From Lingula anatina (lineage: Eukaryota; Animalia; Brachiopoda), in the NCBI GenBank assembly GCA_051362555.1, contig CM120644.1:3170954-3234953 (forward strand): a stretch of 64,000 bases of DNA. The letters are read 5' to 3'. Positions within the stretch are counted from its first letter, which is position 1; every line of letters starts with the position of its first letter. Of this stretch, positions 1 to 51,614 are shown in pieces. Under the pieces are notes generated by a model, which did not search any database, was not told where the DNA came from, and worked only from the letters and a program-made list of their open reading frames with translations. A program made the translations under genes and the position numbers.

Positions 1-500
1 TATTATATTATTTCTCTGTTCCAGGGTGAGGTACAGAGAGCTCCAGTATCTGGTAACCTGTATATATTATATTATTTCTCTGTTCCAGGGTGAGGTACAG
101 AGAGCTCCAGTATCTGGTAACCTGTATATATTATATTATTTCTATGTTCCAGGGTGAGGTACAGAGAGCTCCAGTATCTGGTAACCTGTATATATTATAT
201 TATTTCTCTGTTCCAGGGTGAGGTACAGAGAGCTCCAGTATCTGGTAACCTGTATATATTATATTATTTCTCTGTTCCAGGGTGAGGTACAGAGAGCTCC
301 AGTATCTGGTAACCTGTATATATTATATTATTTCTCTGTTCCAGGGTGAGGTACAGAGAGCTCCAGTATCTGGTAATCTGTATATATTATATTATTTCTG
401 TCTTGCAGGGTGAGCTACAGAGGGCATTAGTATCTGGTAACCTGTATATATTATATTATTTCTCTCTTTCAGGGTGAGGTACAGAGAGCTCCAGTATCTG
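1..500 (+). repeat. 64-bp tandem array (7 full copies plus the real junction) of an integrin intron 3' end and the first ~33 nt of the exon
   Basis: Unit TATTATATTATTTCTCTGTTCCAG|GGTGAGGTACAGAGAGCTCCAGTATCTGGTAACCTGTATA. Acceptor-like AGs end at 24, 88, 152, 216, 280, 344, 408 and 472; only the last continues into the coding exon. The array may extend left of the window. Confidence 0.95.
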
Positions 501-9500: not shown

Positions 9501-10592
9501 TATTTTGGAAAGTTCTGGTTTGCAGAAAAGCTAAGTATTATAGACATCTACCTGGTTACTGGTCATTATGGTAACCCAATTGAATTTTGACAGTTACTGT
9601 GGAGTCTGGAATGAAAAGGGTTAGGAAGGAAGGAACTTAAAGGTTTTTTAGGAAGATACTGTACATTCTGTTTGCTGATGACCAAATGCTGAGAGGTATA
9701 GTTTGAAGTACTTTATCCCAAAGATTTACTGATGGTATAAATATGGTTTTCTCGTGTAACATTTGATAAGTGTGGTATTGGAAATGTCATATCTGTCTGC
9801 TGCTATTACTTTTATTTCAGTTCTTTTATTTTATGAATGCATTTTTTACATTGTGACAGGTGTGACAGCACAATGAAAATTATGCCAAATGCCATTACTT
9901 TTATTTCAGTGTGCCAGTCCAGGAATATTTTTTTCTTCATTAATTTGCAATGTGACAGGAAGATCTAACACACAGCATACATAACAATAGTTTTACACAC
10001 ATTTAATGCTTAGTGCCATTACTTTTATTACAGTGTGCCCTTAGCTCAGTTTTGTCCTTCTGTTGTAGTGTGTACTATATACGATTATGCTGACTGCCAT
10101 TACTTTCATATTCAGAGCATACATTGTGTACTGTATACAATTAAACTTACTGCCATTACTTTCAATTTCAGTGTGCCCCACCCCAGTGAATGTGATGTGG
10201 ATAGTGATAGGAGTGATAGCGGGTATTGTGCTGATAGGACTGGCACTGCTTCTGGTGTGGAAGGTTCTCACCACAATACACGACAGGAGAGAGTTTGCCA
10301 AGTTTGAGAAGGAGAGGTTAAATGCTCGATGGGACACGGTAAGTAATGAAGAATAAAGTGATCGCTAAGATATGGATATTTACCTAAATCAATTTAATGA
10401 CACTTTCACCTGAACTATACATATCAAGTAGGCAATCAATTTATTTTAAATAAGGTTGCAACTTGAATTTTATTGAATGAGTTTATGACCGTTGAACTGT
10501 TTCTATCTTATTTGCTTGTTTAGGGAGAAAACCCCATCTACAAACAGGCAACGTCCACATTTAAAAACCCCACATATGCTGGAAGTGGATAG
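473..10592 (+). CDS. ITGB1: Integrin beta subunit (beta1/betaPS-like), 5'-truncated by the window; 15 coding exons visible
   Basis: GT-AG exons in one continuous frame: 473-559 ([16 protein letters not shown]), 805-888 ([18 protein letters not shown]), 1398-1475, 1713-1898 (DYPS), 2468-2544, 5062-5113, 5584-5739, 6301-6440, 6630-6787, 7149-7252, 7554-7646, 7949-8075, 8526-8639, 10172-10338 (TM, then [19 protein letters not shown]), 10524-10592 ([22 protein letters not shown], two NPxY motifs). Symbol indicates family likeness, not proven orthology. Confidence 0.95.
2530..2795 (+). repeat. ~96-bp tandem repeat (3 copies) including the 5' splice donor of integrin exon 2468-2544
   Basis: CAAAT(G/T)TCAGGG|GTGGGTA...TACAGGGTGACCCCAAGTT recurs with GT at 2545, 2643 and 2738; degenerate copies resume at ~4650-4790. 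Confidence 0.85.
2800..4560 (+). mobile_element. Non-autonomous Helentron/HINE-like element with ~160-bp core repeats
   Basis: T-run start, hairpin TGTACAGACACAGATGTGTCTGTACA, (GTCGCC)n microsatellite, three ~159-bp core repeats, then a long tail closely similar to 62040-63610. Class inferred from architecture; 3' end approximate. Confidence 0.75.
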
Positions 10593-21515: not shown

Positions 21516-21605
21516 TAAGTGAGACATCGAGAAGACTGCAATGAAAGTTCTATTTTCGTCCTTTTGACATCAAATTTGATCAAATAGATTATTCTCTTTT
21601 CAGAC

Positions 21606-24600
21606 ATGACAGTGTTGTACACGCTAGCCGTTTTGTGGTTGATATCATTTTTACTAGGTGTAGGTAAGAAAATTAGGACATAGAATGATTTTATATATAA
21701 TGGAGCATTGCTCATCATCCTCTGACTGTGAAAACTGAAAGGGAAAATGGACTTTCAAGGAATTTATGTTTATTGATAACCAACAATTCGTATTTGTTAA
21801 CATAAACGTGTCAGTAACATTAGTAGTGATAGAGCCAAGGTCACTTATTTAATCAAATCTAAACCAGGGACCGGTTTAATAGAAAAAAATGATAAAACTT
21901 TAGACATAAAGAGGGTAGTCTATTTTTTCACCCACGATAAATCGATATTTTTTAAAAATCTAAATGATGTGTTATAAAAAAAAGATATTGCTAATGTTGT
22001 AGACCTACCTTTATATTGTTTTCTTTTAGTAAAGTTCTTTGCTAATTTATTTATTTAATTCATGGACAAAATTATCTTAAAATTCATTCAATTTTACCAA
22101 CTTGCGGTCTATGAATAGTTCTATGAATTCGTGTCCTATTAACAATATAAACAATAACACACGACTCCCTCCCACAGTGTCCCAGGATTTACACGTCCAC
22201 TTGGAACCTGACCGGAACACATTTTACGTCAACATCGGAGACGATTTTGAGGTGACGTGTGCGCTGGACAGTGGTTCCCTGAATGGCGGGACGACATTTC
22301 AGTGGTACCGGGATGACGGGACAATACCAGGCAAGGAGATCACGGACACCGCTTTGCCTGTCGACACGTAAGTGTGTTCAGTGTGCCCTAGTGATGATTG
22401 TCTGAGTACCCAGACAGTAGAGAACCGTGCCCTCTACAAGGTCCACAGATTGATCTTTCGCTAGATGTTTGCCGATACCTACTTTGCCTCTGGCTAATTC
22501 ATGACACGATTATTTGCGGTGGAGAAAGGTGTCCACAATTAACCTGCGGCCCTGGTAGAGGGCACATGTAAGAAAAACCCCTGGTGACATTTGCCCGAGT
22601 AAGTCAAGTCCTTGGTTCAGTGAAATTTGCAACTGACCTTTTTTTTCAATTTTCCATCTGTCATAGCTTTGGGTAATATTATTCACTAATCAAGTTGGTA
22701 AATACACTTTGAATCAATTGTTTCTTCAGGCACTTCTTAAAATATTCTATTAAAAAATTCGATTTTTTTAAATGCCCTTGCAAAAATTCAATTATTGGAC
22801 ATTTACTTTTGTTATGTATCCACCACATGACCTCTTGCAGCCAATCAGGCCAGGTGGTAGAACACAGTTCAGGACCGCCTCCTGAGTCGAAACTGAAGTT
22901 TTATCAGGTACAGAGCAGCGATTTTGGGAGATTTAAGTGTATAGGATCGTTCAATGGGACAACCTCAGACCCAGTCGTTTTCTCATTGGAGATAAAAGGT
23001 AAGTTGCGCGCCGTTTTAGAAATCACACCTATAACGCATTGTGACGACTCCAACGTATTCCGTATAATATAACTACAAGTACTGGATAAGGAAGCTGTGC
23101 ATGACGTCATGAGCAGCAACTCAACCCGACTGGTCAACGAAAAATGCCCAATTGTTGAGAAAAAATTTGCAATCCTACCAGAAATTGCGAGCTGGAATTT
23201 CGCCAATATGAACTCTTCCAGTTATACCACGCTCCTTTATGCGTATACTCTCTTGATCTAATGTAATTTTTGTGATAATTGAAGGGCTGAAATCACCAGT
23301 GTGAATAATGCTCAATATGAAAAAAAAAATGATTTAAAAAAATTAATAATCCGAAAAAGGACGTTAATTTAAATTTCCCAAAATATAGCTTCACGTAAAT
23401 ATCAACCAAAACATGTGGTTTAGGGTTTATATCATTGTTTTTGTTTATATTCATTTTGATTATATTCATATAAGATGTCTCGGTACAGTATCTTTCCAAT
23501 GTTTTCCAAAATTTTTTCTAGAATCTGTTTGCCCCCCCCCCCCAAAAAAAAAAGACCATAAAATGCATATTAAACAAAAAGTTATTTACAAGTAACCAAT
23601 AACAAAATGGTTTATGGTAATCTTATTTCAAGTTGTCAGAAAGTCCTAATACCAGCATGCATATAAAAAGAAAGTTCTTTATATGGAAAAATGACTTTTT
23701 TACCATAATGCCATAAAAAAGACCAAATGTTGACTCATTAGTTTTTTCCCATCGAAGAGCGAGGGCGGTTCGTTCGAACCTCAGGAACTACCTTCCCTGC
23801 GTCCCGTTACAATACCAACTCCACCTTACTTCCAGAACCAATCGCTTTCACTGACGCCGAGTCCACACAGACAGTGACTTTACACCAGGAGGCGCTAGTG
23901 AAATGCCAGGCGACAGGACGACCCGCACCCAAGATTACCTGGAGTTTTGTCCCTCTGGGGACAGATACCAGGGAATCTGATATCACGGCGAATCAAGGTT
24001 TGTATGGCTTCAATTTAACGAGTTTAGTTTACCGAGACATCTCTTTCTCTCTCGAATCGTACTTGAACAACCTTTTTTCCTTTTTCCTTTTTTCTTTAAC
24101 CCTTTTTTTATTTTTTGCAATCATTCAATATCTATAATTTCTGAGCGATACAATAAACGACCAAGGAAGATGGCGACGTAGGTTATGTACATTTCGAGCA
24201 TGCAGTATAAATAACATCAGGACAGCCCTCTACAATATGTGAGCTAGAAACCATGTTGTGTGGATAGAGTACTCCCTAAATATCTGATATATTAAAGGCA
24301 CACTTCATGAGATTTACCCGCCAAAATGGATTTTCCAGGGGAAACAACCAATTTTCTCGTACTCACGAATTATTATTTTTTGGTCCATCTGCACTTTGAT
24401 TCGACCTTGAAGAAATCATTTTCAAGTTGTATGTAAGGTTTTATAAGAAGCTTTGGTTTTATAAGCATTTTTGGGGATTATCAAGCCCATAGAGTGTACC
24501 TTTAAACCACTTTCTTTCAGCTGAGTTTTACTCAGCAACTCACGAGGGCCTCGTCATCAAGAATGTCACCCTGAGTAACGAAGGCACGTTTGTGTGTGAG

Positions 24601-25420
24601 GCAGAGTCACTGAATTCCACGCTCAGTCTAAATATTTCGGTGGAAGTTTTTGGTAAGTGTTAATGTTGAATTTGGAAATATTATATGATAGATAGATAGA
24701 TCATAGGTAGATGGATTGGTGTTATCCATTATTGCTACGTGTATTTCCAGACAATACAACAAAAAAGACAACTTTAAGCACTGGAAAATATAATTTTGTT
24801 TTTCCTTTACATTGATGATATAACTAGCATATGCTTCATGAAGGCGTTTGCCATTCTTCAGAGTATTTCATTCTTCTATTTGAATATGTAAGTGTAAATG
24901 TGACGTTCAATGGCGCCACAGACTTTTGAAAAGAAATTACGGTTTGAAAATTCCCTTTTTGTTAATAACGACAACAAATGAATAATTTTTAAATAAAACG
25001 CCCCAACTATTTAACTAGTTTAAATTTCTTCATTCTGTTATTCATTGTCAAAATCCCTTTCAGTTGTTTTTCTTTCATTATTTGTTTTTCGTTAATTAAT
25101 GTATCTGTTTTATTTTTTGTTATATGTATTTTTTTGTTATATGTACTTTTATTAATTTATTTTGGTTGGGGGACACAAATGTCAGTGAACAAGCTGCTAT
25201 ATATATATTATTTTCCACCTGGCATAGGCCATACTATTTAGGACCCGTGTTTTCGTTCTTTCCAGAACCCCTGAGCTGGGTGACAGTGCCTGAGGACATT
25301 GAAGGGTACCTTAACCACTCCATAGCGTTCATCTGTGTGGCTCAAAGCAAACCAGACCCGCAGTATAAGTGGTTTAAGGTAAATCAGAATTACATCTGAA
25401 CCACATTGGAGGATGAAGGG

Positions 25421-25480
<60 letters not shown>

Positions 25481-28400
25481 GGCGCAAAAGGGCAATTAAA
25501 AAAAACATTTATTAAGTTAATGCATGAAATAATATTTAGGCATTTAATTTTGTCACAGGGCTAATATTTAAACAGTAAAAAATAATAGATTAAAATGTCT
25601 ACTCTTGAGAAACAATTTTTGTGCGTATTTTTCGAAATCCAATGACGGCTTAATAACATTAAAGGCACCCTCCGCGTCCGAAACGCCAACGATCTTAGTT
25701 CCAAACAGCCGAGTGTCAGTTAACTCGACCAGTGGTCAGTTGACCATCACTGCAGCGCAACAGTCTGACGCAGGGGTGTACACGTGCATGGCAGAGCAGT
25801 CAGCGGGGAGTAACATCACAATAAGTGCCATCCTGGAGGTCAGCGGTATGTCATGTTTGGTAGAATACTAGGATGATCGATTTTGTTCACGTTCAAGCTA
25901 TTAATATAAATATCAGAAATAATAGGCTCTTTTTACAGAAAGACAAATTTGTATTGCAAGAAAATACCCAAAATGGACGATATATGCAAAAATGTATTCT
26001 TTTCTAAAAAAAAAAACCTTCATATTCTCACCAATGTGTGCAAGCTTTTTGATTATATACCGCAGAATGTTAGTTTTCCACTTGGTTTAAATCTATGATT
26101 CTATCTCAATATCTCATTTTTTTATTTTTTTCTGTAACAAAATACGTCTTAAAAAGAAAAACTGGGATTGTTTTCAGACCCAGCACCAAGGATTGTCAGC
26201 TTTCAGAACTCGACAACCTTGGAAACGTCTGAGGGCGTAATGACGTGCAGCGCGCAAGGCAAACAACCAATAAACATTACGTTTACAAAAGTTGTACTTC
26301 CGGTGCCAGAGAACCTGGATGAGGTAATGCTTTCATTTCCAGCATGCATCGTTGAGCGGCAATTCAATGAAAATTTCGAACTGCACGATTATTTCGACCA
26401 TATTATTATTTCAATTTCGATCGAAATGTTTGTCGGTTGCCAAACTCAGTAAAGGTTTTGATTGTTCTGCCTTTGTTGTATGTATAATCTGCTAATTCAT
26501 TTTACATGGATGGCTGACAAATCCCTCCGAAATGGACTGAATTAGACATCATTTTCTACATCTGTGCCGGATCTATCTTGAGTATGCTGTGTTTTCGTAT
26601 GCTTAAAGAATTATTATCATATCATTGGTCACAAGGATTGTACTGAACAGATAAAAACAAATATGAAATGTATTTACATTTTGTATGTTCCAAATGTTCC
26701 AAATTTCAAATTAGAAATAAAATTGCCTGTGTGTGTCTATCTTCCTATCGGTTTGTATATATTTTCATTCTGTTGTCATTTCTTGCAAGACTTCTCCCCG
26801 CATAACACTGGAGAGATCTCATAACGATACCACGGTCAGCTCCACGCTGCGGATAGCTAACTCCATTGCAGCGGATACCGGTACCTACAGATGCTTGGCG
26901 GACAACGACTTTGGTTCCGATACCAGTGATGCCATGTTAACAGTGGAATGTGAGTTGAGTTATGGACGTTTTGCTCAACGCTTGAATTTTTTATCGCCAC
27001 CCAGGATTTTGTTTTTACCTTTATGGATTTGTTCGTAAACGGGCTAACTTAATTGAAAATAGGAACTAATTGCGATTAGCTTTTCTGGAATCTATCAAAT
27101 TATAATTAATTTTGATTTCATCTTAATATGAAAATTAAGCTTGCTTGGCGGAGGAACGCGCTCTCTGAGTGCTTTTGCAAGTCGTTAAAGATGCATACAA
27201 AGTCAACTTTTTGTCACAAAAGCCGACCAAATGCCAGCATATAGTTTCAAGTAGTATAACTAAGAGAATTACCAAAAGGCATTGTTTAATTTTACCCGAA
27301 AATGATGTTTGAACAGATTTTTTTGTTAGCATTCTATGCTGTATGTCAATGGGGCAGAAAAGTAGGTCACGAAAGTAGGTTAAATTTCGAACCAAAAATT
27401 TAAAGAAAGGAGCAGTCTAAAGCTCTTTTATGTCTGATCGAGTGATGTATTCAGTTTATCCCTTGGCATGTTGAATTTATTTGAGAAACTAGTAGAAGTG
27501 GTTTACATGTGTTACTGGGAATCCACGCTCCACCGATGCTTGGTTCGTATGTACCTTTAAAGGATTTTTTGCAAAGAGAGGGATAGAGAAATAGAAACTA
27601 ATTAAGCATATTGCAGTTCGAGTTCCAATGCTGAACACATGCACTGGTTCGGATAATTATAAATTCACTTTTCGTAAATTGTTCAGACCCACCCCGTTTT
27701 ACCGACACAATGCCAGTGGCCAATGAATCCCAACGATTCTGGCTTTACGACAACCAGGCTGTTGCCATGGTCACCCTGATGTGTAAAGTGGACGCCGTCC
27801 CTCCCCCTAGCCAGTGGTTTTGGTGGAAGGGGAATGACCATATTATTGACGATGACAATCATACCATTGTCATTGATGGACTGACCAGTAACCTGTCTGT
27901 GAGTGTTACTGTGTAATAATTCAGCAAATGCGCAATCTGTGTACATTTTGTTTTATTTATACAGTGTCGTCAAAGTAATGTCACCATTATTACGATACGG
28001 TGCTTCTAGTTGCGTTGTTAACAGGGGCCGGTTTCACAAAATAAATGTAGCCCTAAAATTGGTCTTAATTGGAAGACCAAAATTTTGGTCTACTTCATTT
28101 AGTTGAAGGTAAATCCGCATTAGTCCATTTGAATAAAGTAAGAACAAGTGTGAACCATAACTACATTACATGTTGTCTGTTTTACTATAAAACAGGTCAG
28201 TTAATTCATTTGATCGAAGTATTACTGATTCATCTTAGGTCAAACTGGACTCAAGTTTTGGCCAAAGAAATGAGATTATACTTCGGGCTTCAATAGGCCG
28301 CATTCACAACAGCGGACTAACTAGTCTGCGGATCAAATATGGTCAACCCACTTGAATGCTTGATGCGTAATTACCGGGTGGAATCTATTCAGTGTCCATT

Positions 28401-31400
28401 AGGGATAAGACGGCAAGCTTTTAAGTGTCTCGCCATGTTTGATCCGCGGACTAGTAAGTCCGCTATTCTGAATGCGACCTAAGATCTTTTGTACTATTCC
28501 TTATCATTATGACTATTATACATTTGAACATACAAATGGACGTAAATGCGACCTTTCCCATGCAACAACTGCAGGCTAAGAATTTTTTTTTTTTCAGATT
28601 GCCGTGGACGAGAACAACATTGGAACTGTTAGCGGGGTGTATCACTGCAACGTGTATAACTCCCGTGGAATGGAGAAACATTACATAACTCTGACGGAGT
28701 CTAGTATGCTTGTGGATTTTTATCTTTCTTGATTTCTTGATTTGTAACATTATTACAATAAATACTGACGATTATATATACTATCATAATCCTCCCACGT
28801 GGTAATTCGACACGTCATATGTAGTATGAGAAGATGTAGGCAGAGTCAGCGTACATCTTACTGTTTTTACACGAAGCATATATTAATAATAGATTTTTTG
28901 CTTCGAGGCAATATGATATATATAATATTTATATTGCGTTAAAGCCAGTACTATTGCAAAGAAGCCAAAAATAAACTTAAAACAGTCATACGATTTTGCA
29001 GACATCAAAGAGACAGAGAATTATGATCAGTTTCCATTGTATATCAACAAAGTGACTTGTCTCCATAACAGACAAACAAAAAGGATCACACCTTACTAAC
29101 TAAAGTTACCAATATAAAAGGAAGTTAAACGATTAAAAAAGCTTACTTCCGGTGACCTCCAACAAGATAAATTATAATTATGATTAACTCTGCTTTTTCC
29201 AGCCGCTCCAAGTAAAGTGACCGACATACATATTAACGAGACCAATTCCACAACTGTCCAGCTGATAATTAACCCCCCGCAGGACAATGGCGGCCTGCCA
29301 GTGACAGATTACTTAGTTGACGTGGCCGAGCTCTCACAAACGGGCACCTCGCGGCATGTAAAACTCCCAATAGGTACAACTTACACGGTAGTGAACAGGA
29401 ATATGCCTGATTGGGGATCATCCTAGACAGCCCATAACAATACCTATTTTATTTAAGTAGATTTATATATGTCTGGGGCAACTTTTTTGCATACATGTAC
29501 GAATAGAGCAATTTTGAGACTACAGTTTGTTTTCATTAAGGCCAGATCCATGGCCGAGGTTTGCCACTATTGTAACGTTGTTTCCTGTTGTATGGTACGA
29601 CAGATTTGGATCTACTTGGACACACGATATTCCCATTCAAAATTTAAGCTCCCCTTTTAGATTCGGACCTCGTCATCACGGAACTGAAGCCCAACACGAC
29701 GTACGTGGTCAAAGCTAAGGCCATAAATGCCGCGGGGATGAGTGACCAGAGCGAGGGGGTCACCGTGCTTACTGCACCCTCTCAAGGTGAGGATGTGTCT
29801 CATTGACGTGTGGTCAAATTATGTTACACTTTGGATTTTAATCATGTTTTATTAAGCGATACTTTTCCTATTAGGACAATGTCTTTACATTTTGAAATGT
29901 GATTAAAACTCACTTAATTTGTTGAGAATCTTGAGGTCCTTCAAATACAAATTATTATTCACGACTATAATTCGGATTTATTATTGAGGCATTCCTAAAG
30001 GACAGCTATTGAGTTTGTTTGCGAGTGTTCAAGCGGTTGGGTTGGCGATGGCAAAAAAAAAGGACAATAAGGAAAAGGTTTATTCGAAATATGGCGTGCT
30101 TTTGATGTGGTGTTGCAACTGCTAGTGTAACTTATTAATTACCATGTTTGATTTGCTTTTATCTGGTTTTATGGTGTGGTTTGAGGCGCTAGAGGTAAAG
30201 CATTTTACAGTCTTACCGCCAGCACACACAGAAGATTTCTTCTGTCTGCACAACGGATGACAAGCGCTCGCAGGACTGTTCGTGACCTGGGTACATGTAA
30301 GTGCGATTTACTGTCAAAAAACCACCCCACAAAAGATGGACTACGATATTTATTTAGTATTATAGATAGAGATAACGATGAATATAACCGTCAGTATCAA
30401 GGTATATTTTTTATCTAACCAGTTTCTGTTAAAGTTAACTGATCACAAGCAAACATGCTCATAACAAAAATAAATAAATAAAATAAATAAAATAAATAAA
30501 TAATAAAATAGACAATAAATTAAAATGATAATAATAATAATTGCGTTAATTGTATAACAGTTTTCAGAAGATGTTGATTTTAATTACTGGCGTTTTCATT
30601 TTGTGTTGTGGATTTTGCATTTGGTACAACTTTGTACATACAGCCTTGCCGTGTCTCAGTCTGCTTCTCAAGGTATTGCCAATGTAACCATTGCTTTTTT
30701 TATCCACTTCACGAGTACTTTGAATAAAAGACCCTTTCGCTTTCACTTTCATTTTCACAGCAAGCACCCCCGGTCCGCTCTCACAGTTGAACGTTACCAA
30801 CGTAACGTCGGATTCCATAACGCTGGAGATTTCCCCGCCGTCTGACAATGGTGGACTACCCATAACGGGTTACATGGTCATCATGGGAACGCAACACCAG
30901 TCCTACAATCTTAGTAGGTATAAGTATCTATTGACAAGACATGACTTCTAGAAATAAAAGAAGTATTTTTGTAGACCAGTGCTTACATCATCTTCGATAT
31001 TATATATGCATGCATTTTTCCCATAGTCAATCATATCGCTGCGAACCGATAAAACTATCTATAATACGATAATCAGAGTATATGGTACCTTAAGTTACGT
31101 TATTCACATTTATAATAATATTTTTATTTTCATTTTTATTGAGTAGTATTGTAAATTTAAAAAAAAAACTTATATATTATTGCTAGCGGCAGATTATTCA
31201 CTCTTTTTATCTGATACCATGGATATTCAAAAAGGGTTAACCAAAACGCAGATAATTCCTCACTTAGAGAGGGGGTTTCCGCATCTATTTGCTTTAGTCA
31301 AGTTTTTCACATACAGGTACAGATACAATTTTTCTTAAAATACAAACCTTCGAATTCATGGATACGACTTCAGGTCATCAAGTCCTTTACGTTATTATTC

Positions 31401-33069
31401 TTTTTATTTATACACTTATTTATATATTTGAATAACTACATGGGAAATTATACATGTATATTAATTAATGCCATTCAATGTATTCTAGATGACACCCTGA
31501 CTATACATGGGTTAGAGAACGGGACTCTCTATAACGTCCAAGTAATGGCAGTTAACGCAGAAGGAATGGGTCCTCCAACTACAATTAATGTTACTACGCT
31601 GACGACAGACGGTAAGAGACACTGTATTATGTCATATAAATTGAAACGTTTAACGAATTGAAACAGACCTACTGCGATATCTACTGGGGTAACTACAGTA
31701 TTATCTATTTTAGCTGTACTGAAGTTCGGGAAAATATTTTATTATCATGTAATGCTGATAAAGAAGTAAATCGTTCCAAAAAGAATATCAAAGGATTTGA
31801 GAAAGATGAGCTTTTTAATTGTATATACAATGATAAATCATGTCGGCGCCTTATCTTGGGAGATAACTCTTTATGGATTTTTTTTCAATATTTGCTCTAT
31901 CTTTTTGATTAATTTTAAAGGTATGATAATAATGATTATTAGTGTTATTAATTATGTACCTGTTGTTTACACCACGCGCAGTCACGATGCGCAGCAATGC
32001 ACGCCCCGCACTCCAAGTGTGCCGTGCACGGGTTGCTGTCATTTACCACGATCCACGGAGTGTACTTCTCGTAGTAGAATCCTGGAGTATAAAAATAGAT
32101 ATATAAATGAATATACAGGTCGATGGTAACCCCAAACTAATACTAGGTTTGGTACACTAGAATTTTTGTTTTTTGTTTCTTGGGTAAAGGTGACAAAAAG
32201 TTAATCGTTTACAAAGGTTATGAATAGTCTAATATTTTTACAAACTGTTCACTTTTAACCATGTACAGTTGTAGGTACTCCTGCCCCTACAGACCTGCCC
32301 TCCACCAGTACGACTGTAACCACAACCAGTTCTTCCGGCACAACCACTTCAACAACTTCAACCACAACCACAACAACCAGTAGAACCACCGTGACAGCAC
32401 CACCGCCTCTGCCCACTGATGCCGATACCACCACAACACTAACGCCATCTACTGCCAAGACATTGGAATCAACAACTCCCACTGTTGAACCCATGGTAGT
32501 ACCAGTCAAAACGAAAACAGGTGCTCTCTCTCCCTCTCTCCCCCTCTATCTCTATTTTATTATTTCCAGACACGTCACAGTCGTTAAAGTTCTTTTTTTC
32601 TTTAAAGGTATGACATGGTATGAAATGTAAATCTGTTGGAATCTTCCGCCACATTTGAGACTACTTTCGCAATCTATATGTTGCACTAATCTCTTCATAC
32701 AATGTACTCTTAGATCCTTATTCTGTGCTGTTTTAAACATAGTGATAAAATTTGAGCTAGTAGCAATAACGATTATTGTTCTTATTATTTTATATTAAAC
32801 GTATAGGCCTACTGCCTCAGCAGTAGCTTCTTTTTTAGAAGAACATTTCCCAGACATTGTCCAAGACAATTAAAACGTGTCAGAAACCTATTGATAGTGT
32901 GATTATATATATTAATGTAAGTTCCCGGATTTGTTTTGTTCCAGAGTTCTACTACGAGAAGTACACTCCGTGGATCGTGGTGAATGACAGCAACCCGTGC
33001 ACGGCACACTTGGAGTGCGGGGCGTGCATTGCTGCGCATCGTGACTGCGCATGGTGTAAACAACAGGTA

Positions 33070-33109
<40 letters not shown>

Positions 33110-34228
33110 GAGTACATTTATCGGATGACGCACCGTAGTTTTGCTCTCAATAATCGCTTCATTTTCCGATTAAAACCGATGTATTTATCATTATAGGGTT
33201 GGGAAGACTTTCATTCCGATGACCGCTGCGATACATTGAGCAAGCTGCAGGAGTTGGGATGTACGCCAGATAACATCGTGAATCCAAATAATAAAATAGT
33301 GACTAGAACGGTAATACATATCGGGATTATTGCATTGTGTTACAACTGGATTGATTAAACAATCGCTGACTTTTTATTCTTGTATCCGACAAACGTGTTG
33401 TATGTAAACTGGTGTGTGTACGAAAAACGACTAGAACACTGAAAGTCGTTCTACAAAGAGAAGTGCAATGTAGCCTAACCGTTACACTGTTTGATTGCTG
33501 CAAATAGCCAGAGTTATTGTCATTGACTTTTTCTTCCAGAGTTCGGCAGATCTTTTCATTGGCCCGCCGGAAGTCACCATTACACTAAAACCCGGTAAGA
33601 ACGACAGAACACAAAAAAGCATTATTCGGTTAAGACCTGTAACCTGTTTTACAAAAAATCTCAACTTCCGTGGTTGAGCTCACTGGAGAGTCAACTACGC
33701 AAAGGCAACTTCGTGGTATTGGTCTGAGAGATTTAAAGAATGGTTTATCAGCAGTAAATGTGTGTGACATAACTAATTGGACTACCGTCCGTCGACAATT
33801 TAGAGTAAAAACCATCAAGACAATCATAATTTGCTCAAATTTGCTCAAGGGGCGTAAATGAAAGACCGTTAGATCAAAGAAAGCGCTCTTCTACATTTTT
33901 CTTTCAGTAAAGGCCCTACTATCACGCCTTGGCGATTTACCCAGTGGATGCCGCCGTATGAAAAAGTTGACAAATACTTGGCATTTTATTAATCATAACA
34001 TTACACCATTATTATTGTTGTTGTTGTTGCTGTTGCTGTTGAAGTTGTTGTTTGATAATTTTTAACATATTGTAGGCAGCATCGTGTCTTTCACTGGTAC
34101 ATACGCCGTACCTCCCTCCTACTTGCTGGATGTCTACATTTTACTGGAGGTCAATTATATGGATGAAGACAACCAAATGAAGATGTACCTGGAATCAAAT
34201 ATGCAGTCAATAGGTGATCTCTCTTTTT

Positions 34229-34275
<47 letters not shown>

Positions 34276-36313
34276 AGTTTAGTGCTTTAATGATAGCTTT
34301 TAGAATCACTTTTATGTAAAAATAATAATTTAAAAATTGAACTACATGATGACCTTTGTTTACAATGTTTTGTTTATTCTCTTTCATAAAGCAAACACGC
34401 TGAATACTTTTTCCAGTGATTTACGGTTTGGATTCGGAACATTTATCGATAAACCCGAGATGCCGTTTATGTCAGAAGAACGGTATGTAAAACTATGTTA
34501 GAATGTGAATGCATGTATCACAAATGTATGGCGAAGCACTGTACTTTCTGGTATCAAACAGAGTCACACTAAACGTGTTGAAATGGGGAAACCAAACACA
34601 AAAAAAAAAAAAAACTGTTGCAGTGACGCAAATATATCAATGTCTCATGAGACAGAAACGTACCACATCCACACATACATACACACATCCGTGCGTGCAC
34701 ACATACATATTCAGTCCCATGGTAGAACGTTGCAGACATATCAGAACATTAGTAGACGTCAGAACACTAGTAGGTTGTTACTTTTCTGGGAAGACATCGT
34801 TTGAATGTATTACTACGATAATATGTGGTATATATGAAGGAAAATCTAATAATCCAGATAGGGCCTACTGTCACGTTTTTTTTTGTTCCTCAAATATATG
34901 AACTTTAAGCACACGAAGGATTGCGTCTTATTTATTGGCACCACTATAATACCGTCAGTTTGTTGATAACATTTCAACAGTTGGTAGTCTTAAATAAGTC
35001 GCAAATATCTGAATCAGTAAGCCGTGATATACGAACGTGTATGCATAAGATAGGAGTATGGGTGCACATTTAAACAGAATTTTCTTTTTGTATTTAGTAA
35101 CCAATATTGCCTTAATTGTGCTGAGAACTGCACGTGCCAACCATCCAGTTTCCAACATGTCGTCGGAATGACGGAGGATTTGGCTTTGATAGAGGTTGGT
35201 AGAGTTTCAGAATCGACATATTTACCTTCATCATCATCTTATTTCAATACAAGCAAACTTGGCGCGTCTGAACTTCAACTGTATTTGATTGAAGATTTCT
35301 GCACCAGTCACGGTTTTTTTATTCACTGTGTCACGTGTCCTCCAAAGGAACCACGAAATCTGATTGGCCAATGCGCTTTTTTGATCGGTGCGGTGGACTT
35401 CAAAGGCCCTAGTGAGATAAGCATAAAAACCTAGCTGAATTAAAAAAAAAGAATATTATTGCAAAGCTGCCGATTGACTTTTTATAGAAATATGTGTATC
35501 GGTAGCGCATTTTTAACCTTTTCGAAGTTCCATTAATAGATAGAACTGATAAATAGAAGTACAAAATAACTGCAAACTAAAACGTCACATTGAGGGTTTT
35601 TTTAATTGGTCTTGTATTGTCTTCTAAGCACACATGTACATAGCTTAAGTAATTCTTTGTGAAAATGTCAACGATTTCCCTTTAATCACAAAATGTTTCA
35701 TATCTAAACCGTAGGAAAAAATAGCGATTTATGAATCTCTTTTGTTACTGAATATCATCTTTTACGTGACCGTTTCCATTGATGCAGGAGAGGGTTTACG
35801 AATCACTGGAAAACTTCAGTAAGGATCCGTTAGACGCGGGGCTGGATGCGTTGCTGCAAGTTATTCTATGCAAGGTAGGCTAATTTCATATGTTGACAAC
35901 ACTAACAGGCCTAGTGTAGCCAGCAATTTCAAAAGAGGGGTTCTTTTTCTAAAAAAGTGGACCTATTACCCCCCCCCCCCCGTCCCGGCTACGGACCTGA
36001 CATAATTGGAGTCTGGCTCATGGAAATCATCCGAGATAGCCTAACACGAGGCTGACGACACTGTGTCAGCGGTAAACAAGAGCTTATCAGTTTTCCGGTT
36101 TGGGGTTAGAGTTAAGCACATGGCAACAGAACAGCTCCTGAATTCCATTGATGAAATCAGATTTGATTCTGGTCGTGGTATACTTGATATTTATGATATT
36201 CAAGCAGTTTACATTATGATATACAATAATATAATAGTATATATGTACAGTGTGCAACATTATGGTGGATCCAGGGTTAAGGATTTTCTGGGAATGTATA
36301 TTTAAGTTGACAT

Positions 36314-36348
<35 letters not shown>

Positions 36349-39300
36349 TGTTAATTATAGGATCAAATTGGTTGGAGGGACAAGTCAAGGAAAGTTGTGT
36401 TACTTTTAGGCAGAAACACATTTCATCTTGCCGGAGAGGGGAAGGTGAGCGCTTTTAAAACATTCTCTTGTCTATAGAGGGTTGCGTGAAGCCTACATCG
36501 CGTGCGCCTAGATTGTTCGGATTCAATAGCAAACGGCGACATGCGCGGTTCTCGCAGTATCGCGAACCATTGGAGAAACTGATAATTGCAACCGATTAAA
36601 ATGTTATGAGATTTTATTTGAGCAGACACTTTGTGAAATATTGGCGAAACGGGCATAATGCAATGCTAAAAAGAGGAAATTTGAAAAGTTAGTAATAAGA
36701 GAAACCAATATCTGAGGATGACTTCCGTGAGCTTTCTATAGTCTTCGGGTATTTTTGATTTACGATAAATAGCCAAATGTAGTCAAAAAATACACCATAT
36801 GATGCTGTCTTGCCGCATACGTTTCTTACGACTGCCAGACCAAAAAAGCCTTATTTATCCGTTTGAACTTTGTCATCTTTGTGAAGCTAGTTGCTAATGT
36901 GTTGCCTATTATGTTTAACACTTACAGCTTGCAGGTGCCGTATTACCGTACGATGACACTTGCCACCTGGATTCAAATGGACAGTACGCAGAGGATTTCA
37001 AAAGGGTAACAATTTTTACTAGCTCGAGTTTTAGAGCCGTTGTGGTTCAATTCCTTTATTTTCAATTTCCAATACATACCCGTTTGTCGGGATGTCTGAC
37101 TTACCCTTACCGTTTTAAAGATTTCTAAAATAATTTTATCTATTTCCTTCCGTTCATCTTTTCACTTCATTTTAATTTTAAATATTTTTATTTGACTCTC
37201 GGAACAATGAAATAATTTTAAATGATTTAATAATTTCATTCTCTGAATACACGTTATTGCAAGTGACACAGTATTTATGTATTTATTGTTTAGGATTATC
37301 CCTCCTTACACAAAGTAAAGAAGATCGTGGAAAGCAATAAAGTCAACGTCATATTTGGTGTCCTCCCTGGCGTCGCATCCGGGTTCCGGACGCTGTCCGA
37401 AATGGTCAGCGGGACGGTGGTTGAGGAAACCGCGGGGACAGATATTGACCGGGCTCTGCTGTCAGGAATGCAGGTACTGTACACCGTAACCAGGGGTGAG
37501 CCTACATCCTACTTCACCACATGTTTTGAATTGTAGACGCCATGTGCTAGGAAGGGATCGTGTTGACTTTCATTTGCCCCAGTAATATTGCTTGTTGACT
37601 ATTTTCAACCAGTAGATATGTTGAAACAATTCTCAAGCCAAAACAATAATCCTACTCTTGCTCTAATATCAGAATATCATTTGTATACTATACTACGTTG
37701 TAGGCACTGAATAGCAAGCTAGAACTCAGAGTAAAAGATGATCCAGTTCACAGCGACGTGCAGTTGCATGCTGAATGTCAGAGGTGAGTGCTTTAGAAAT
37801 ACAAACCAGTTGTTAGCTGTGTAAACCTGTTAACAGGCTTTGGAGTTCTTATTCTGAAAATTCGCGTCTTTTTTGGGTGGGTCCCAAGTTGACCAAGCTT
37901 GATAAATGGCATAGAACCAATTTACGAAGTGTTATTTGGGTGGATATTTCAGACGTTAAATTAGTCAGCTAATTTTTTTTTTAGCAAAGTTGACTTTACG
38001 AAGTCTGTGATCCGATTTTAGCAATACAGGCTATTACAAAATTGTATGTTCGCTGGAAGACTTCTTATATCGAATAAGCGCTGAGGACATGAACTTACAC
38101 ACTTCTTTTTGAAAGAGACCCCAAGAACCCTTGCCCTAAAATTGTTCTAAGGTTTAAGACCAAAATAAAGTGTACTTTGACTCCATATTAGTCGGTGTTC
38201 TTCCGATTAAATTGAATACAGCGCCCATTTTAAAACAAGATACACATGTAAACATCAACAGTGTTTCAGACCAATCACTTCTTTTTTTAACTAGGCCACT
38301 ATAAAGAATATTGTTTGAATTTGAACTGATGTTTTGGACCAAGTTTTTGGCTAAGGTTCTTAAAGTGAAACTGACCTCAGATGTCCATATTGTTTGCCAC
38401 TCCTCATTGCTAAATGCACAGTGTACAAAGCATACAAAGCGTCTGGGGTACTGTCTGGGGTGCAAACGAACACATTTATGAACATGTTCCTGGTATAAAA
38501 TAGAGCCTGATGAAAAGTGTTTTGATTTACTTCCTATTTATTACAGAGGGAACGCTTTAGACGAACGAAACAAGACGCTTATTTGTGAAAACCTAGGTCC
38601 GTCAGACGTGGTGAGTGTTATGTTTCCTACGCTACTAAAACGACAGAGGCGTGAGATACACTATATAAAAACAGGATAACTTTTGCCGTTTAAATCATTG
38701 CATATGGCAGTTTCCTGTTGTCTATTTTTCAACGATCTGCAGTCTTCTTCCGGAAGTAGGAAAACGTAATGCTTCAATGCTTCCAAACATATCGAAAAAG
38801 GAAAGTAAACTAACATCGAGTTTGATACTTTCGTTCAACAGTTGTCTTAACGTAAAGGACATTATTGTTTGAAATTTTTATTTTTCATTTCCCTCATTTC
38901 CATTCGTCTTTAATTTTTGTTTTCGTGTCTGATAGGTTAATTTTCGGGTTACTGTGGCTGTCGATAAATGTCCTTTGGAAGACCACGTGGTATACGTGTC
39001 ACCAATCGGAATAGGGGAGGAGGTCAAGGTCAGCCTGCACCCGCTTTGCACCTGTCCATGTGAGGCCGCGACGCCGGCAGCCATGGTAACGACACCAGCA
39101 ACCATGGTAACTATCGTACAACTCCCTGGTTTCTTATAAAGGTATCCCATCTGGGATTTTCGCGCCAAATGGAATTTTCATCTAAAAAATATTTTCATTT
39201 TTCTATTACTCATGAATCATTACTCCAGTCGTCCCTGTACTTGAATTCGATGTTTTACACCAATCCCAACGAAATGGTTTTGTTTTAAACCGGTATCCAG

Positions 39301-42300: not shown

Positions 42301-43741
42301 TTCGCCCTCTAAAATGCCATTTTCCGGCCCCTTCAGCGAGCTCCGGACCCCACGCCAAGGAGGGGGGGGGGTCGACTTCGCGTCCGCAGACCCCCCTTCA
42401 AAAAATTTTGGACCCTGTATATATTTATATATATAGCAAATGAGAAGCGCTGAGCAACGCTTTCTTACCTGCAGTAGGATTAACTTGTCTACTGCATGTG
42501 TTGGTAAAAATTTATGGATTTATATTTTCGAATGTATGGAGACTGATATTTAAAAAGTATTAAGAATTCGGCTCTTTCACGTACAGTATATACATGTTTG
42601 CATCTCACCCCCACTCCCCCCCCCCCCCACACACACACGCACATACAGACGCACACACAGGCCTACGCACATGTACACACTCACGCACATACTGTATGCA
42701 CATTAAAGGAAGACGATTTTTTTTAAATCTAAGTTCAAAACCTTGAACTCTGTTAACTCCAAGTCTCAGAGCGTGGCGTGTATATATCTGCCTTAATTTC
42801 TTCCAGAACGCATCCCCGGAGTGTTCCAGCAACGGTGTCCTATCCTGTGGTAGCTGCGTCTGTAATGAGGGCTACTTTGGACGCTGGTGCGAATGCAATT
42901 TGGAGAAACTGACCAACTCCACCTGGGATCAGTGTCGAAGGTAAAACACAGATGACCGGTGTAACGAAACCGAGGGTCCGTGTAACAGAAAGTCCGCCCT
43001 CCATTTATTTCTAATGGTTAGGGTTAGCCTGACATAAGTGGGTCAAAATCGAAGGAGAGGCTTACCTATACAAATGGATGGGAAGCGTAGTCTCTATCAC
43101 AGGGACTCTCTGTCACATTACAACGGCCTGGAGGCAGAAATTCCAAATGGGGTTTTGGGGGGTACTTTTTCTGAAAAAGCGATTCTTTCTGCCTCCTATT
43201 ATCAGTAAGGCCTTGTAGACCAAACTTGAGAAATGCCATAAAATGTCAATTGAAATTTGTATTTTGTTTCAGATCTTATAAGATTTCCGGCCTATAAGTT
43301 ATATTGAATTTATTTTCATGTCATGTTTCAATTAAAAGTGACATGTTTGATGGTAGTTCTTAACGAAAGAAAGTTTTTTGAGTTTTTTTTTGGTGTTTGT
43401 TTCCTTTTTCTTTCCTTTTCTTTTTTGACAATTTAAGTTAAATTAATTTACTATTATCCCAACGACAAGAATATTTATTTTCTCGTAGCGATGAAAATAG
43501 CTCGGTGTGTTTCGGCCAGGGGGAGTGTTTCTGCGGGTCCTGCTACTGCAACCGTGTCCCAGGAGAGAGGGTGAAGTTTGACGGGGACTACTGTTTTTGT
43601 GACAACACCTCATGTCCACGAGACACTGACTTCAGGATGTGTGGAGGTAGGTTCGCAGCCTCGGTCTTCTTTATATGCTGTACAGTGTGTTGTGTAGCGA
43701 GTCTGTAAAATGTATCTGCAAAACAGTTTAGTGCACAATTA

Positions 43742-43790
<49 letters not shown>

Positions 43791-46700
43791 CTTAATAATG
43801 TTAAAACATACACAAGTCTGGGACATCCTAAACTTGAAATTGGTTCGAGCATTTATATTAAATTTAAATTTACTTTTACCCTAGATAACATAACATTTAT
43901 TAATATATATCTAGGTCCTCTGCACGGCAATTGTGTTTGTGGCAGCTGTGAATGTGAACCGGGGTTCAGTGGCGACGCCTGTCAGTGTAACTCCACGTCC
44001 GGTACATTACTGTGTACATCGTCCAATGGGGTGAGTGTGCCCTCCGATCACAGTCTCTGGTACAGCGTGATCTGGTACAAAATCGAATAAGATATTTATT
44101 CAGTTTTGTAACAGACTACAGAGACTGCTGTCTTGTGATGGCAAAACAAAGCAAAAGTCCGAGTTTTTTGTCTCTAATAATAGTTTAATTTGTAATATTT
44201 TTTTCCAAAGCACGCCATGTTATTTAGTCCGTTATATAACAAAAAATTAAAATACTTATAAAGAAATAAAAAATTACGGTAGGTGATGATTTTTTTTTTT
44301 TTTTTGCTGGGAATTTCAACAAATTTCTATGAAATGTCAGGATACACCCTCGTCAAAACCATAGAGAAAATAGTGATGTATAGATCCACTTTTGGGTTTT
44401 TTAAGTCGTGCGTAAATATAGTTAAAGATATTTGATAATTCCCCAGTGTTCCTCATAGTGTCTCAAAGTTTGGAAAGGTGGAACTTTGAAAACTGGATTA
44501 AAACCGCTTTGTTTTGAACGGTTTTAATAGGTAACTACAGGTAGTATAGCGTAGTGATCAAGAGAAAATTGGTTAAATATTTTTGGATTTTTTCTCATTC
44601 CTAATTTATTTATTTATTTATATGCTAAGAAAATCCATAACATATAATTTCAGTTGCTGTGTAATGGGAAGGGTGACTGTCGCTGTGGTCGCTGCTACTG
44701 TGACGTCAACTCCGGCTACTCCGGCCCCACCTGTGAAATATGTCCGGTAGGGGGTGCTGCAGTCGCGACCAATCATGCGACTTTCACTTAATAATTTTCA
44801 TATTAATGTTTCATATTAATGATTTTGTGTAAATAGTCTTCATATTTACTTATCTATTTATTGAGTTTACTTAATTACATTTTGACTTTTAGGCCTATGC
44901 ATAAGAAAAGATAAAATATATTACTCCTATAAATTAACATCTTCCCAAATTAAAAATTGGAACAATTTGTGGGAAAAACTCTGAATTATTATGTGCCTGG
45001 CCGCAGTTTGGTAAACTTAAGATAGTTCTCAAGTAAAAAAAGGATCCACAGTATTTTGTATCTCATATAAAGTTAATAACTACCTTGCTTTGTTTACTTC
45101 CAGACATGTCGTGAAGTCCGGTGTCCCGATATCATAAGCTGTATTCGATGCACGTTGAAAGCACGAGTCCAAGAAGCGCATGCGTTACACACTCCAGAGG
45201 TCCTTCAATTTGAAGCAGAGTGCGACAACATCTGCAGGTTACACGAAATACAGACGGTTTCAGATATCCGAGGTACATGCCGTTTATCCCACTTAGACCC
45301 TCGTTTTTAAAATAAAATCCAATGCAGAATTCAAATAAACGTCTTTAAAATGTCAAGAAATTACAGTGAAATCACTTCATCAAAAAGTATTTTGAGTAAG
45401 AAAACGTAATAAAGCTTACTCGATTTTTTAAGCTCGCACAAAAGCTCGCACAAAAGCTACACGACCCCTTAATATTCCAGAGGCGGACCTGTTTGACTTC
45501 GTGTGTCGCGTCCCCACTGGCCATAAAAATTGCTTCAACCTCGTCACCTACAAAGAATTGGGGCAGGAGAAAGTCGCCATGAAGATAAAGACCGTGGAAG
45601 GTACATGTAGGGTTTTTTTATGAAGCTCTTTTATTGTGTCATCTCTTATTGTGCACTATGCCATTTTATGATTATGATATACTTAAAAGTGCTATATAGC
45701 TCAAACGTGTCTGTTTTTTTTTTTTTTTTTTTTTTTTTTTTGTTCCTTTTTTTAATTTCACTTTATTACTGAATCTTTTTTACAAGTAGAAAGCTAGTTA
45801 ACGCGACTGTGATCAATTAAGAGCTCGAGAAACTGTAGTTATTATTATTATTATTATTATTATTATGTGTTGATCTAGGCCTGGGAAGGGAATAATTGTC
45901 AGTGATTTGTTTAAAACTGATAAAAACTGACACTTTTAAGGCAGAAAAACTTAGAAGTAATCTCGACCAAGCCCCCGATTTTGATTTAAGGTGAAATGTA
46001 TTGGAATCTTCTTCTGCTCTCCGTTAAATGTATTCTTTATCGGATTTTCGCGTCAGATCTAATTTTCCACGAGAAAGAAGCATTTTGCTTCTATTCTGCG
46101 TTTCCTACCATTCCTAAAATCAAATTACTTAGTTTAAGGCAATCGCGATTCATTTCACTGCCAACCGTCTTCACGTCACAATATCGGCGTCATGCGGGCT
46201 TCAAGGGAACTTCAGTTCTATTTTATTTATTTTTTGTACTGACCGAATCGTAGTAAGAAGCTGTGTGGGCAATTTAGACATCAAGCTACAACTCTGGAAT
46301 ATTTTCAAACGTGTATGCGTAGAATTAAAATACAACTTACTTGAAACATCGTTTGCTTTCAGAATGCCCAATGAACGAAACGGCCATGTATGACCTTATT
46401 TGGAAGTGTGTCGTCATAGACCTGGCTATCCTAGTTTTAGTTCTCCTAATACTGCTGTTATGGCGCCTCATAGTCTGGTGTATAGACAGAAATGCCGTAC
46501 AACACGTATGTATGCCGCTGTGTGTAAATTCCATTGATCACATTGGATAAGCGTAAAAAATGATCATGTGATAATAAAGCCACTGAGCACAAGCTAGAAT
46601 TGTCCTGCTGTACGTTGTTGTCCTGTTGTTGAAGAGCAACAACTTGATGTACGTGAATGATGTAACAAACCTGACAACGGTCGGAGACTTGTGGCAATTG

Positions 46701-47066
46701 TGTTCATTAATTTTATTATAATATGATCAAACTACCATGCTTATCTGCGATATATTTTGCTCATAAAAGCCGTCAGTATGGTTTTTGTGCATAAAATGAT
46801 ATCAGTGTTATGATATTGGAATGAGTCTTATAACATTTGGATACGATTTTCAGTCGTTGGTTGAAGTTACTAAAGGTACACAATTTATGTAGAAAAAATA
46901 TTGGTATCCCAGAACGATTTTGGCATGCTAAATAAAATGATGTAATTTTTTTCAATTTTCAATATTTGAAGATAAAGCTCAGTTCATTTGACCCTTGTGT
47001 GATTCATTTTCCTTTCAGCCTATGATAGTTCCATTGGAGGAATTCCAGTCCACGGACGCAAAATAG
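21606..47066 (+). CDS. Putative chimeric adhesion receptor: signal peptide, 5 Ig, 2 FN3, Thr-rich stalk, complete divergent integrin beta (PSI, hybrid, betaI, 4 I-EGF, tail domain, TM, short cytoplasmic tail); ~1587 aa
   Basis: 37 phase-compatible GT-AG exons totalling 4764 nt with no internal stop: 21606-21663, 22178-22367, 22841-22998, 23836-23997, 24521-24652, 25266-25378, 25665-25845, 26178-26323, 26790-26949, 27687-27898, 28598-28703, 29203-29373, 29661-29786, 30761-30913, 31489-31611, 32269-32520, 32945-33066, 33197-33310, 33540-33594, 34076-34213, 34392-34482, 35098-35194, 35788-35874, 36361-36444, 36928-37005, 37294-37473, 37704-37783, 38547-38610, 38936-39085, 42807-42940, 43489-43646, 43915-44030, 44654-44746, 45104-45272, 45481-45600, 46363-46505, 47019-47066. 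The fusion junction 32520/32945 is inferred. Confidence 0.8.
22427..22570. mobile_element. MITE family B
   Basis: TIR-like ends GTGCCCTCTAC(A/C)AGG...CCCTGGTAGAGGGCAC; related copy at ~52803-53008 and a partial copy at ~53247. Confidence 0.6.
24296..24501. mobile_element. TTAA-flanked MITE (Kolobok/piggyBac-type)
   Basis: TTAA|AGGCACACT ... AGTGTACCT|TTAA. Confidence 0.6.
28296..28479. mobile_element. MITE family A (PIF/Harbinger-like)
   Basis: TIR GGCCGCATTCACAACAGCGGACTAACTAGTC / GACTAGTAAGTCCGCTATTCTGAATGCGACC, flanked by ATA and TAA. Confidence 0.8.
31957..32086 (-). repeat. Inverted duplicate of the PSI exon 32945-33066, with both splice sites
   Basis: Reverse complement reads ctccag|GATTCTACTACGAGAAG...TGGTGTAAACAACAG|gtac. 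It differs from the + exon only at the first two bases and two synonymous positions. Confidence 0.95.
39520..39740. mobile_element. CAG(T/G)GGCGGA-type MITE (hAT-like); related copies at ~41796-42013 and ~42166-42416
   Basis: Ends CAGTGGAGGATTTA ... TGGATTTGCCCCTG; the other copies start CAGTGGCGGATTTAGG. Confidence 0.6.
39813..41795 (+). repeat. Two diverged local duplications in the largest intron of the chimeric gene
   Basis: ~39813-40290 resembles ~40543-41080 (TACGCGGGTTC.., AAGTCACGAGTTC.., GGGATGGTCA.., CCGGCATGGCG); ~41240-41483 resembles ~41523-41796 (CAACTCCACAGT.., GAATTGATTCAGTAGCTTTCCC). Confidence 0.75.

Positions 47067-51569: not shown

Positions 51570-51614
<45 letters not shown>

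Follow-up and report, generated by a model that had tools for sequence, protein, structure and literature searches.

Evidence for an IgCAM-type ectodomain spliced onto a divergent integrin beta chain in the brachiopod Lingula anatina

Integrin beta chains are among the architecturally most fixed receptors of animals. Cell adhesion molecules that belong to the immunoglobulin superfamily (IgSF; hereafter IgCAMs) such as NCAM, Fasciclin II, apCAM and LeechCAM share an ectodomain of a signal peptide, five Ig and two FN3 domains, as is described for LeechCAM in the cited excerpt (PMC2139938). Here we analysed a gene at 21606..47066 (+) of a 64,000-nucleotide stretch of Lingula anatina DNA, called the window (assembly GCA_051362555.1, contig CM120644.1, positions 3,170,954 to 3,234,953, forward strand), which very probably joins both families in one chain. 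Like the NCAM group it starts with a signal peptide, five Ig and two FN3 domains, yet it ends in an integrin chain and not in a transmembrane segment (TM) or a glycosylphosphatidylinositol (GPI) anchor. Compared with integrin betas of the beta-1/betaPS type (PDB 7nwl_B, 8xei_B) it is alike in domain order, Cys pattern and predicted fold. It differs by about 790 extra residues between signal peptide and PSI domain, by a broken consensus of MIDAS (the adhesion site that depends on a metal ion) together with its adjacent (ADMIDAS) and synergistic (SyMBS) sites, and by the absence of NPxY motifs and of a TM glycine.

Several described or recorded proteins come near in one respect or another. The FN3 domains of integrin beta-4 are cytoplasmic; they stand after the integrin part (P0138), and an Ig head is absent. 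Amoebozoan type II ITGB carries extra domains including Ig-like folds on a beta scaffold (bioRxiv 2020.04.29.069435), and oyster Cg-beta3 has lost NPxY as has the Lingula chain (PMC7390872). The Branchiostoma record P0086 is an N-terminal fusion to a beta chain; however, it carries an alpha head and keeps a DLSKS motif. As far as the cited excerpts describe them, none of the latter three has an N-terminal head of five Ig and two FN3 domains plus mucin stalk on a membrane-anchored beta chain.

The fusion was examined in RNA. The data came from one run, X4, of which about 6% was read; 38 reads mapped to 31450-33069 and junctions with fewer than three reads were not reported. The junction between stalk and PSI exon (32520>32945) was crossed by five reads with five different starts, that between FN3 and stalk (31611>32269) by seven reads with seven different starts; both were GT..AG and on the sense strand. 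Loose read ends were exact matches to exon 14 at its end and to exon 18 at its start. The reads matching exon 18 had been aligned to a PSI-exon copy that lies inverted in the intron before the stalk exon. Depth was similar on both sides of the fusion (FN3 exon about 6.4; PSI exon about 4.2 plus about 1.7 assigned to the inverted copy). The earlier note on this DNA, made by a model from the letters alone, had proposed a single transcript and had named as evidence to the contrary a read-through to the TAA at 32630 and a PSI exon entered separately. With a depth as low as that of these 38 reads, neither was seen: depth was zero from 32530 to 32907, and no alternative entry into the PSI exon was among the reported junctions. 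Within the stalk exon the reads carried 19 substitutions, 10 synonymous and 9 non-synonymous, and no reported indel; six of the nine amino acid changes agreed with the RefSeq protein XP_023933489.1. Because the reads carry other alleles, the junction exists in an individual different from the source of the window. This excluded an assembly chimera. With junction reads on both sides of the stalk and a matching RefSeq model, we consider it very probable that the Ig-FN3-stalk/integrin beta fusion is real and made as one spliced transcript.

The gene model was assembled manually from splice sites (Table 1). As the earlier note had counted, 37 exons, each with AG/GT ends, yield a single open frame with one terminal stop; its length estimate of about 1587 residues has to be replaced by 1594, with exon 1 ending at 21663. 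The protein consists of a signal peptide, five Ig and two FN3 domains, a Thr-rich stalk of 84 residues, PSI, hybrid, beta-I and again hybrid domain, four integrin EGF-like (I-EGF) modules, beta-tail domain, TM and a short tail. The fusion point was correctly placed: a stalk exon with phase 1 at both ends (32269-32520), a phase-1 PSI exon starting at 32945 and a 424-nt intron between them. By a Kyte-Doolittle scan the whole protein has two hydrophobic segments only: the signal peptide and a single TM, for which the windows start at 1538-1559. Thus the Ig part, as had been noted, is without a TM or GPI exon of its own and its stalk is spliced on to PSI. The PSI exon is preceded by 814 residues; therefore, the signal peptide does not directly precede PSI, unlike in ordinary integrin betas. 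The fusion intron holds no signal-peptide-like open reading frame (ORF); the earlier note had found no signal-peptide exon for the integrin part. A tandem duplication of 21 nt at 39069-39111 produces a Thr/Ala/Pro insert between hybrid domain and I-EGF1. The inverted PSI-exon copy has intact AG and GT. It is recent and is predicted to form a 145-bp stem in the pre-mRNA with the real exon, around the stalk exon; no editing pattern was evident in X4 at its low read depth. The earlier note had overlooked this copy, as it had the loss of both NPxY motifs.

Table 1. Features of the fused gene and of its surroundings in the window (positions count from the first letter of the window).
Feature	Position	Strand	Evidence or remark
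Exon 1, ATG and signal peptide	21606..21663	+	hydrophobic N-terminus; donor TAG/gtaaga; yields length equal to XP_023933489.1
Exons 2-11, five Ig (aa 22-539)	22178..28703	+	two exons per domain; phase-1 introns between domains; Ig_3 x5; Cys pair in each
Exons 12-15, two FN3 (aa 540-730)	29203..31611	+	Pfam fn3 x2; exon 14-15 and 15-16 joins in RNA
Exon 16, Thr/Ser/Pro-rich stalk (aa 731-814; 54% S+T, 13% P)	32269..32520	+	expressed; RNA splicing at both sides
Fusion intron, 424 nt, GT..AG, phase 1	32521..32944	+	5 junction reads; zero intronic depth
Exons 17-19, PSI and start of hybrid domain	32945..33594	+	Pfam PSI 831-877; join of PSI exon and exon 18 inferred from loose read ends
Exons 20-26, beta-I, degenerate MIDAS (E936, N938, M940, D1036, R1067), G-E-G-K1077-L retained	34076..37473	+	alignment
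Exons 27-29, second part of hybrid domain and short Thr/Ala/Pro insert	37704..39106	+	
Exons 30-33, I-EGF1-4 leg, 30 Cys	42807..44746	+	Pfam; Cys count
Exons 34-35, beta-tail domain	45104..45600	+	alignment to beta-1; model pLDDT mostly >70; Pfam Integrin_B_tail without match
Exons 36-37, TM helix without glycine, short tail without NPxY	46363..47066	+	stop at 47064-47066
Inverted PSI-exon copy including splice sites, intronic	31951..32095	-	145 nt, 94% identical, encodes same 40 aa
Last 15 exons of canonical integrin beta, likely parent paralog; a 22-residue stretch intact	473..10592	+	14/14 introns, 199/536 identical
Uninterrupted 1719-aa ORF between the two beta genes	14093-19249	-	
Small IgSF gene: signal peptide exon, one Ig over two exons, TM, basic tail	51127-53834	+	
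Start of glycosyltransferase gene	57840-58450	+	

In the integrin half the order PSI-hybrid-beta-I-hybrid-I-EGF(4)-beta-tail-TM is complete (E 7.5e-98 to beta-1). AlphaFold2 was given residues 434-1594 and an alignment of 83 homologous beta chains; its predicted local distance difference test score (pLDDT) exceeded 80 over most of the part between PSI and TM. Foldseek with the predicted beta half retrieved beta-3 best (E 1.5e-60), and headpiece chains scored TM 0.83-0.87. The structure prediction which the earlier note had suggested thus returned an integrin beta fold at high confidence, Ig5, FN3 domains and stalk being unmodelled; by this model the beta half should adopt the normal fold of a full integrin beta. 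The ectodomain has 58 Cys, and in the span common with the integrin beta encoded upstream in the window both have 47; a canonical ectodomain is given about 56 in the cited excerpt (PMC2397394).

The metal sites are different. At the MIDAS positions, where D-S-S-E-D is expected, the fused chain reads E936, N938, M940, D1036 and R1067, i.e. the consensus residue is present at none of five positions and three of the changes are non-conservative. Of 99 full-length beta homologues, 98 have D at position 130, all 99 have S/T at position 132 and 97 have it at position 134. Of 100 aligned beta rows, 97 have E at position 229, while at position 259 there are 93 with D and none with R. The spacing exactly equals that of the published consensus DxSYS-X95-E-X30-D (bioRxiv 2020.04.29.069435, cited excerpt), so the assignment of positions is secure. 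The ADMIDAS consensus (S..DD) has become D943, retained, and N944. In SyMBS (D/E...N-D-x-P-x-E) D977 and D1033 are retained; Asn and Pro are changed (S1031, L1035), and D1036 follows. From these residues the MIDAS is very likely non-functional, and the suggestion that metal-dependent ligand binding has been replaced is strengthened. The G-D-G-K/R-L motif contacts the alpha propeller in solved integrins. It is retained as G-E-G-K-L at 1074-1078, with G1074, G1076, K1077 and L1078 matching the consensus. In human beta-3 the mutations D119A/D217A still allow localisation with alpha-V, but less of a ligand-bearing alga is taken up, according to the cited excerpt (PMC12852126). The cytoplasmic tail has no NPxY/F; both motifs are lost, and both are present in the upstream beta. 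In the 10-residue membrane-proximal region corresponding to KLLxxxxD(R), W, D and R (D1573-R1574) are kept and the following helix is shortened. The fused chain descends from the integrin beta family, yet its MIDAS and tail residues speak against classing it with the canonical, working betas.

Database support came from a search with one Ig5 exon against longer proteins, which had one match among five candidates. This was XP_023933489.1, 'uncharacterized protein LOC106162639' of Lingula anatina, 1594 residues, with the UniRef name 'Integrin beta'. It aligned with our gene model without a gap and was identical at 1527/1594 positions; thus, it stems from another haplotype. Pfam assigned to it five Ig_3 and two fn3 domains, PSI at 831-877, Integrin_beta at 927-1149 and integrin EGF modules. 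A second Lingula record of the fused protein, P0002 with 1708 residues, has exons 24-26 of beta-I repeated, whereas the window has a single copy; the repeat is probably an artefact of assembly or gene modelling.

The two haplotypes differ at 12/780 residues in the beta half vs 46/709 in the head (Fisher p 6e-7). Most variable were Ig2 (12.2%) and Ig3 (9.2%); beta-I had just 1 difference in 238 residues. Synonymous divergence was 4-13% in three RNA-covered exons. The minimum non-synonymous divergence (pN) was 0.007 for the beta half and, for the head, 0.028 against synonymous values (pS) of 0.065 and 0.13 in RNA-covered exons, a rough guide as pN and pS compare different haplotype pairs. These figures suggest that purifying selection acts strongly on the degenerate beta half and that the head is less constrained; positive selection is not demonstrated. 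A pseudogene was ruled out, in line with what the intact frame had suggested: the frame is open in two haplotypes and exons 15-16 have a synonymous excess (12/21, p 0.005).

The head had been called NCAM/Fasciclin-II-like. This holds for the architecture, a signal peptide with five Ig and two FN3 domains, and not for orthology, which exon, Atlas and shorter-protein searches did not establish. Of three exon searches one, with a half-exon of FN3-1, had NCAM2 as the best PDB match after titin; the others matched VEGFR2, DSCAM or Robo. The top Atlas match was an NCAM1 cluster at 0.96, with contactin and neuroglian clusters also at 0.95-0.96. Stand-alone relatives of the head were sought among shorter proteins: 7992 candidates gave nine weak matches, none of them NCAM-named, and the best one with Ig domains was Robo2-like (E 3e-21). 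Homophilic binding is typical of the ectodomains of IgCAMs, and they bind heterophilically as well, as stated in the cited excerpt (PMC4754453). For Ig1-3 (residues 22-331, without an alignment) the prediction of a homodimer scored 0.00, 'no answer'.

We searched for a second protein of this architecture, as the earlier note had advised. Among proteins of 876-2790 residues the beta half had five matches in 7967 candidates, and Ig domains were present in XP_023933489.1 only. HMMER with a query from Ig5 to the end, run against 1.84 billion representatives, gave 7895 matches, of which the best 150 were examined. In 163 collected proteins both head and beta-I were matched by the two Lingula records only. 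The nearest whole-protein Atlas clusters were beta-4 at 0.80-0.81, below 0.9 and a lead only. P0005, a single record with domains of Wnt, kinase, myosin and beta type, was set aside as a probable merged gene model. No paper on the fused gene was found in the literature, judged by title or start of abstract, and two Lingula genome papers (PMC4595640, PMC13121700) do not use the word 'integrin' in their main text. Thus no other carrier was found in protein collections, in a search that did not extend to the genomes of other brachiopods and of phoronids; in this sense the receptor may be called lineage-specific.

How might such a gene have originated? Upstream by 11 kb and in the same orientation lies a canonical integrin beta gene with its end at 10592; an 18-residue stretch and an NPTY motif are intact in it. 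All 14 testable introns are common to both genes in phase and approximate aligned position, and 199/536 residues are identical. The shared introns fit an origin as a tandem duplicate. A sister-grouping of the fused beta with a sea-cucumber beta in FastTree was rejected as a long-branch effect after a site-heterogeneous tree, calculated with 28 author-chosen rows of 100, and an approximately unbiased (AU) test. In the site-heterogeneous tree the upstream beta was the row nearest to the fused beta by path, with end branches of 3.74 (fused) vs 0.45 (upstream). Constraining the two together changed the log-likelihood by +7.96 (p-AU 0.846); a shared clade is not rejected and not proven. In the simplest reading, then, the neighbouring beta gene would have been duplicated in tandem, the copy would have come to be spliced onto an IgCAM gene and would have evolved fast after joining it. 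We may speculate that the weak donor of the fusion intron and a hydrophobic peptide encoded by reading through it are a relic of a GPI-type end of the donor gene.

We propose, with a probability of about 0.55, that the gene encodes a single-pass receptor in which the head is likely the ligand-binding part and the beta chain, devoid of MIDAS and NPxY, is likely a metal-independent pedestal, probably paired with an alpha subunit. The IgCAM head would bind ligand, with adhesion or recognition via its Ig domains. The glycosylated stalk, attached at the PSI end, would hold it clear of the integrin body and knee. The beta chain would pair with alpha, serve as pedestal and membrane anchor, and would support neither RGD-type binding nor activation by talin or kindlin. 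Other integrin betas require alpha pairing for surface delivery, and for the fused chain we regard such pairing as rather probable. A tentative extension, to which we give slightly less than even odds, is an alpha/beta heterodimer in which ligand recognition has moved from the metal-dependent head to a tethered polymorphic IgCAM module, so that it would bind cells via Ig domains, uncoupled from talin and under strong purifying selection. Several observations weigh against our proposal of a head on a beta pedestal. All 38 reads were from one of four RNA runs, taken from nine, and the remaining three (X1, X3, X7), having none, were no test. The 252-nt stalk exon was spanned by no read and the junctions seen in RNA were only those from exons 14-15 to 17-18; the full-length molecule is thus deduced from a chain of junctions. 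AlphaFold2 gave no usable structure of Ig5, FN3 domains or stalk (pLDDT <50), which were left unmodelled because the alignment contained beta chains only. The acidic residues E936, D943, D977, D1033 and D1036 persist and might still hold a cation. The TM without glycine and the loss of about 11 membrane-proximal tail residues weaken the usual alpha-beta membrane clasp. In FastTree (100 rows) the fused beta sat on a long branch and did not group with the upstream gene, and the shared introns may be ancestral to all Lingula betas.

Some of these points would fit a chain that works without alpha, its beta half being a stand-alone rigid stalk and membrane anchor; beta-I might then offer a new, metal-independent surface for binding. 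The glycine-free TM, the shortened juxtamembrane tail and an end branch about eight times that of the upstream beta, which signals a deep change of role, are in its favour. We hold it to be unlikely, as the chain retains D1573-R1574 and the alpha-contact motif G-[DE]-G-[KR]-L, and beta-I, with its single haplotype difference, behaves as expected of a domain that has a large partner interface. Less probable still is a dual-ligand integrin whose remodelled acidic cluster binds a cation and a matrix ligand, the Ig head adding a second specificity. It would be in keeping with the conservative changes D130>E and E229>D, with the persistence of D943, D977 and D1033, and with the strong conservation of beta-I; yet both MIDAS serines are gone (N938, M940), an Arg at position 259 occurs in 0/100 rows and the Asn and Pro of SyMBS are changed, while MIDAS and SyMBS are reported in the cited excerpt to be essential for integrin ligand binding (bioRxiv 2020.04.29.069435).

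Two further alternatives concern the head and the gene as a whole. Compatible with our proposal of a head on a metal-independent pedestal is a polymorphic receptor of self/non-self, gamete or immune recognition with diversifying selection on Ig2 and Ig3, a possibility which we rate as low. The excess of differences in the head with its peaks in these two domains would suit it, as would CpG content: a high observed/expected (o/e) ratio suggests a regulated rather than a housekeeping gene, and the ratio is 0.88 in the fused gene vs 0.32 in the upstream beta. However, minimum pN in the head stays below pS, so that relaxed constraint suffices, and the comparison comprises two protein haplotypes only, the second without DNA. 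Finally, a GPI-type IgCAM gene and a divergent beta gene may be neighbours which are joined only sometimes by read-through splicing. The weak donor (CAG/gtgctc), the fairly hydrophobic 36-residue end obtained by reading through to 32630, ATTAAA at 32794 and 32869, and the low RNA depth can be taken to say so. Against it stand the zero depth beyond the donor, the lack of another reported entry into the PSI exon (at least three reads), a fusion intron without a signal-peptide-like ORF and a RefSeq model of a single gene; we consider this arrangement highly improbable.

The surroundings of the gene have features of their own. The minus-strand ORF between the beta genes resembles by its motifs a BEL/Pao-type long terminal repeat retrotransposon polyprotein, which we presume it to be. 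At 1-470 there is a tandem array with a unit of about 64 nt; every copy contains a splice acceptor plus the opening segment of that exon of the upstream beta which starts at 473. Short inverted-repeat elements, similar to miniature inverted-repeat transposable elements, are located just upstream of the start codon (21340-21519) and at 28294-28483, and a stretch near 52330-52490 is similar to them. The small Ig gene is a second IgSF gene adjoining the fusion gene, and the glycosyltransferase gene is presumably GTDC1-like.

The search also retrieved three Branchiostoma records (P0086, P0164, P0165) of 2658-2797 residues, none of which has GFFKR or NPxY; two are without a strongly hydrophobic segment. 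P0086 combines an integrin-alpha head (FG-GAP, Integrin_A_Ig_1) and a basic linker with an integrin-beta head, whose DLSKSMADD is intact, and with EGFs, four FN3 and VWC. They are candidates for a single-chain, possibly secreted alpha-beta integrin; no paper on these records was found in the literature.

The Lingula receptor was built by joining two major adhesion families and adjoins its likely parent gene. So far it is labelled 'uncharacterized' in RefSeq or 'Integrin beta' in UniRef and is known from one genus. The fused chain has apparently swapped metal-dependent binding and NPxY coupling, the two defining traits of integrin function, for an IgCAM head, while its beta-I domain stays near-invariant between haplotypes. 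It thus offers a natural test case for the role of an integrin scaffold without MIDAS and talin. If recognition has indeed moved to a polymorphic IgCAM module on an alpha/beta heterodimer, it would represent an undescribed class of integrin-based recognition receptors, possibly common to other brachiopods.

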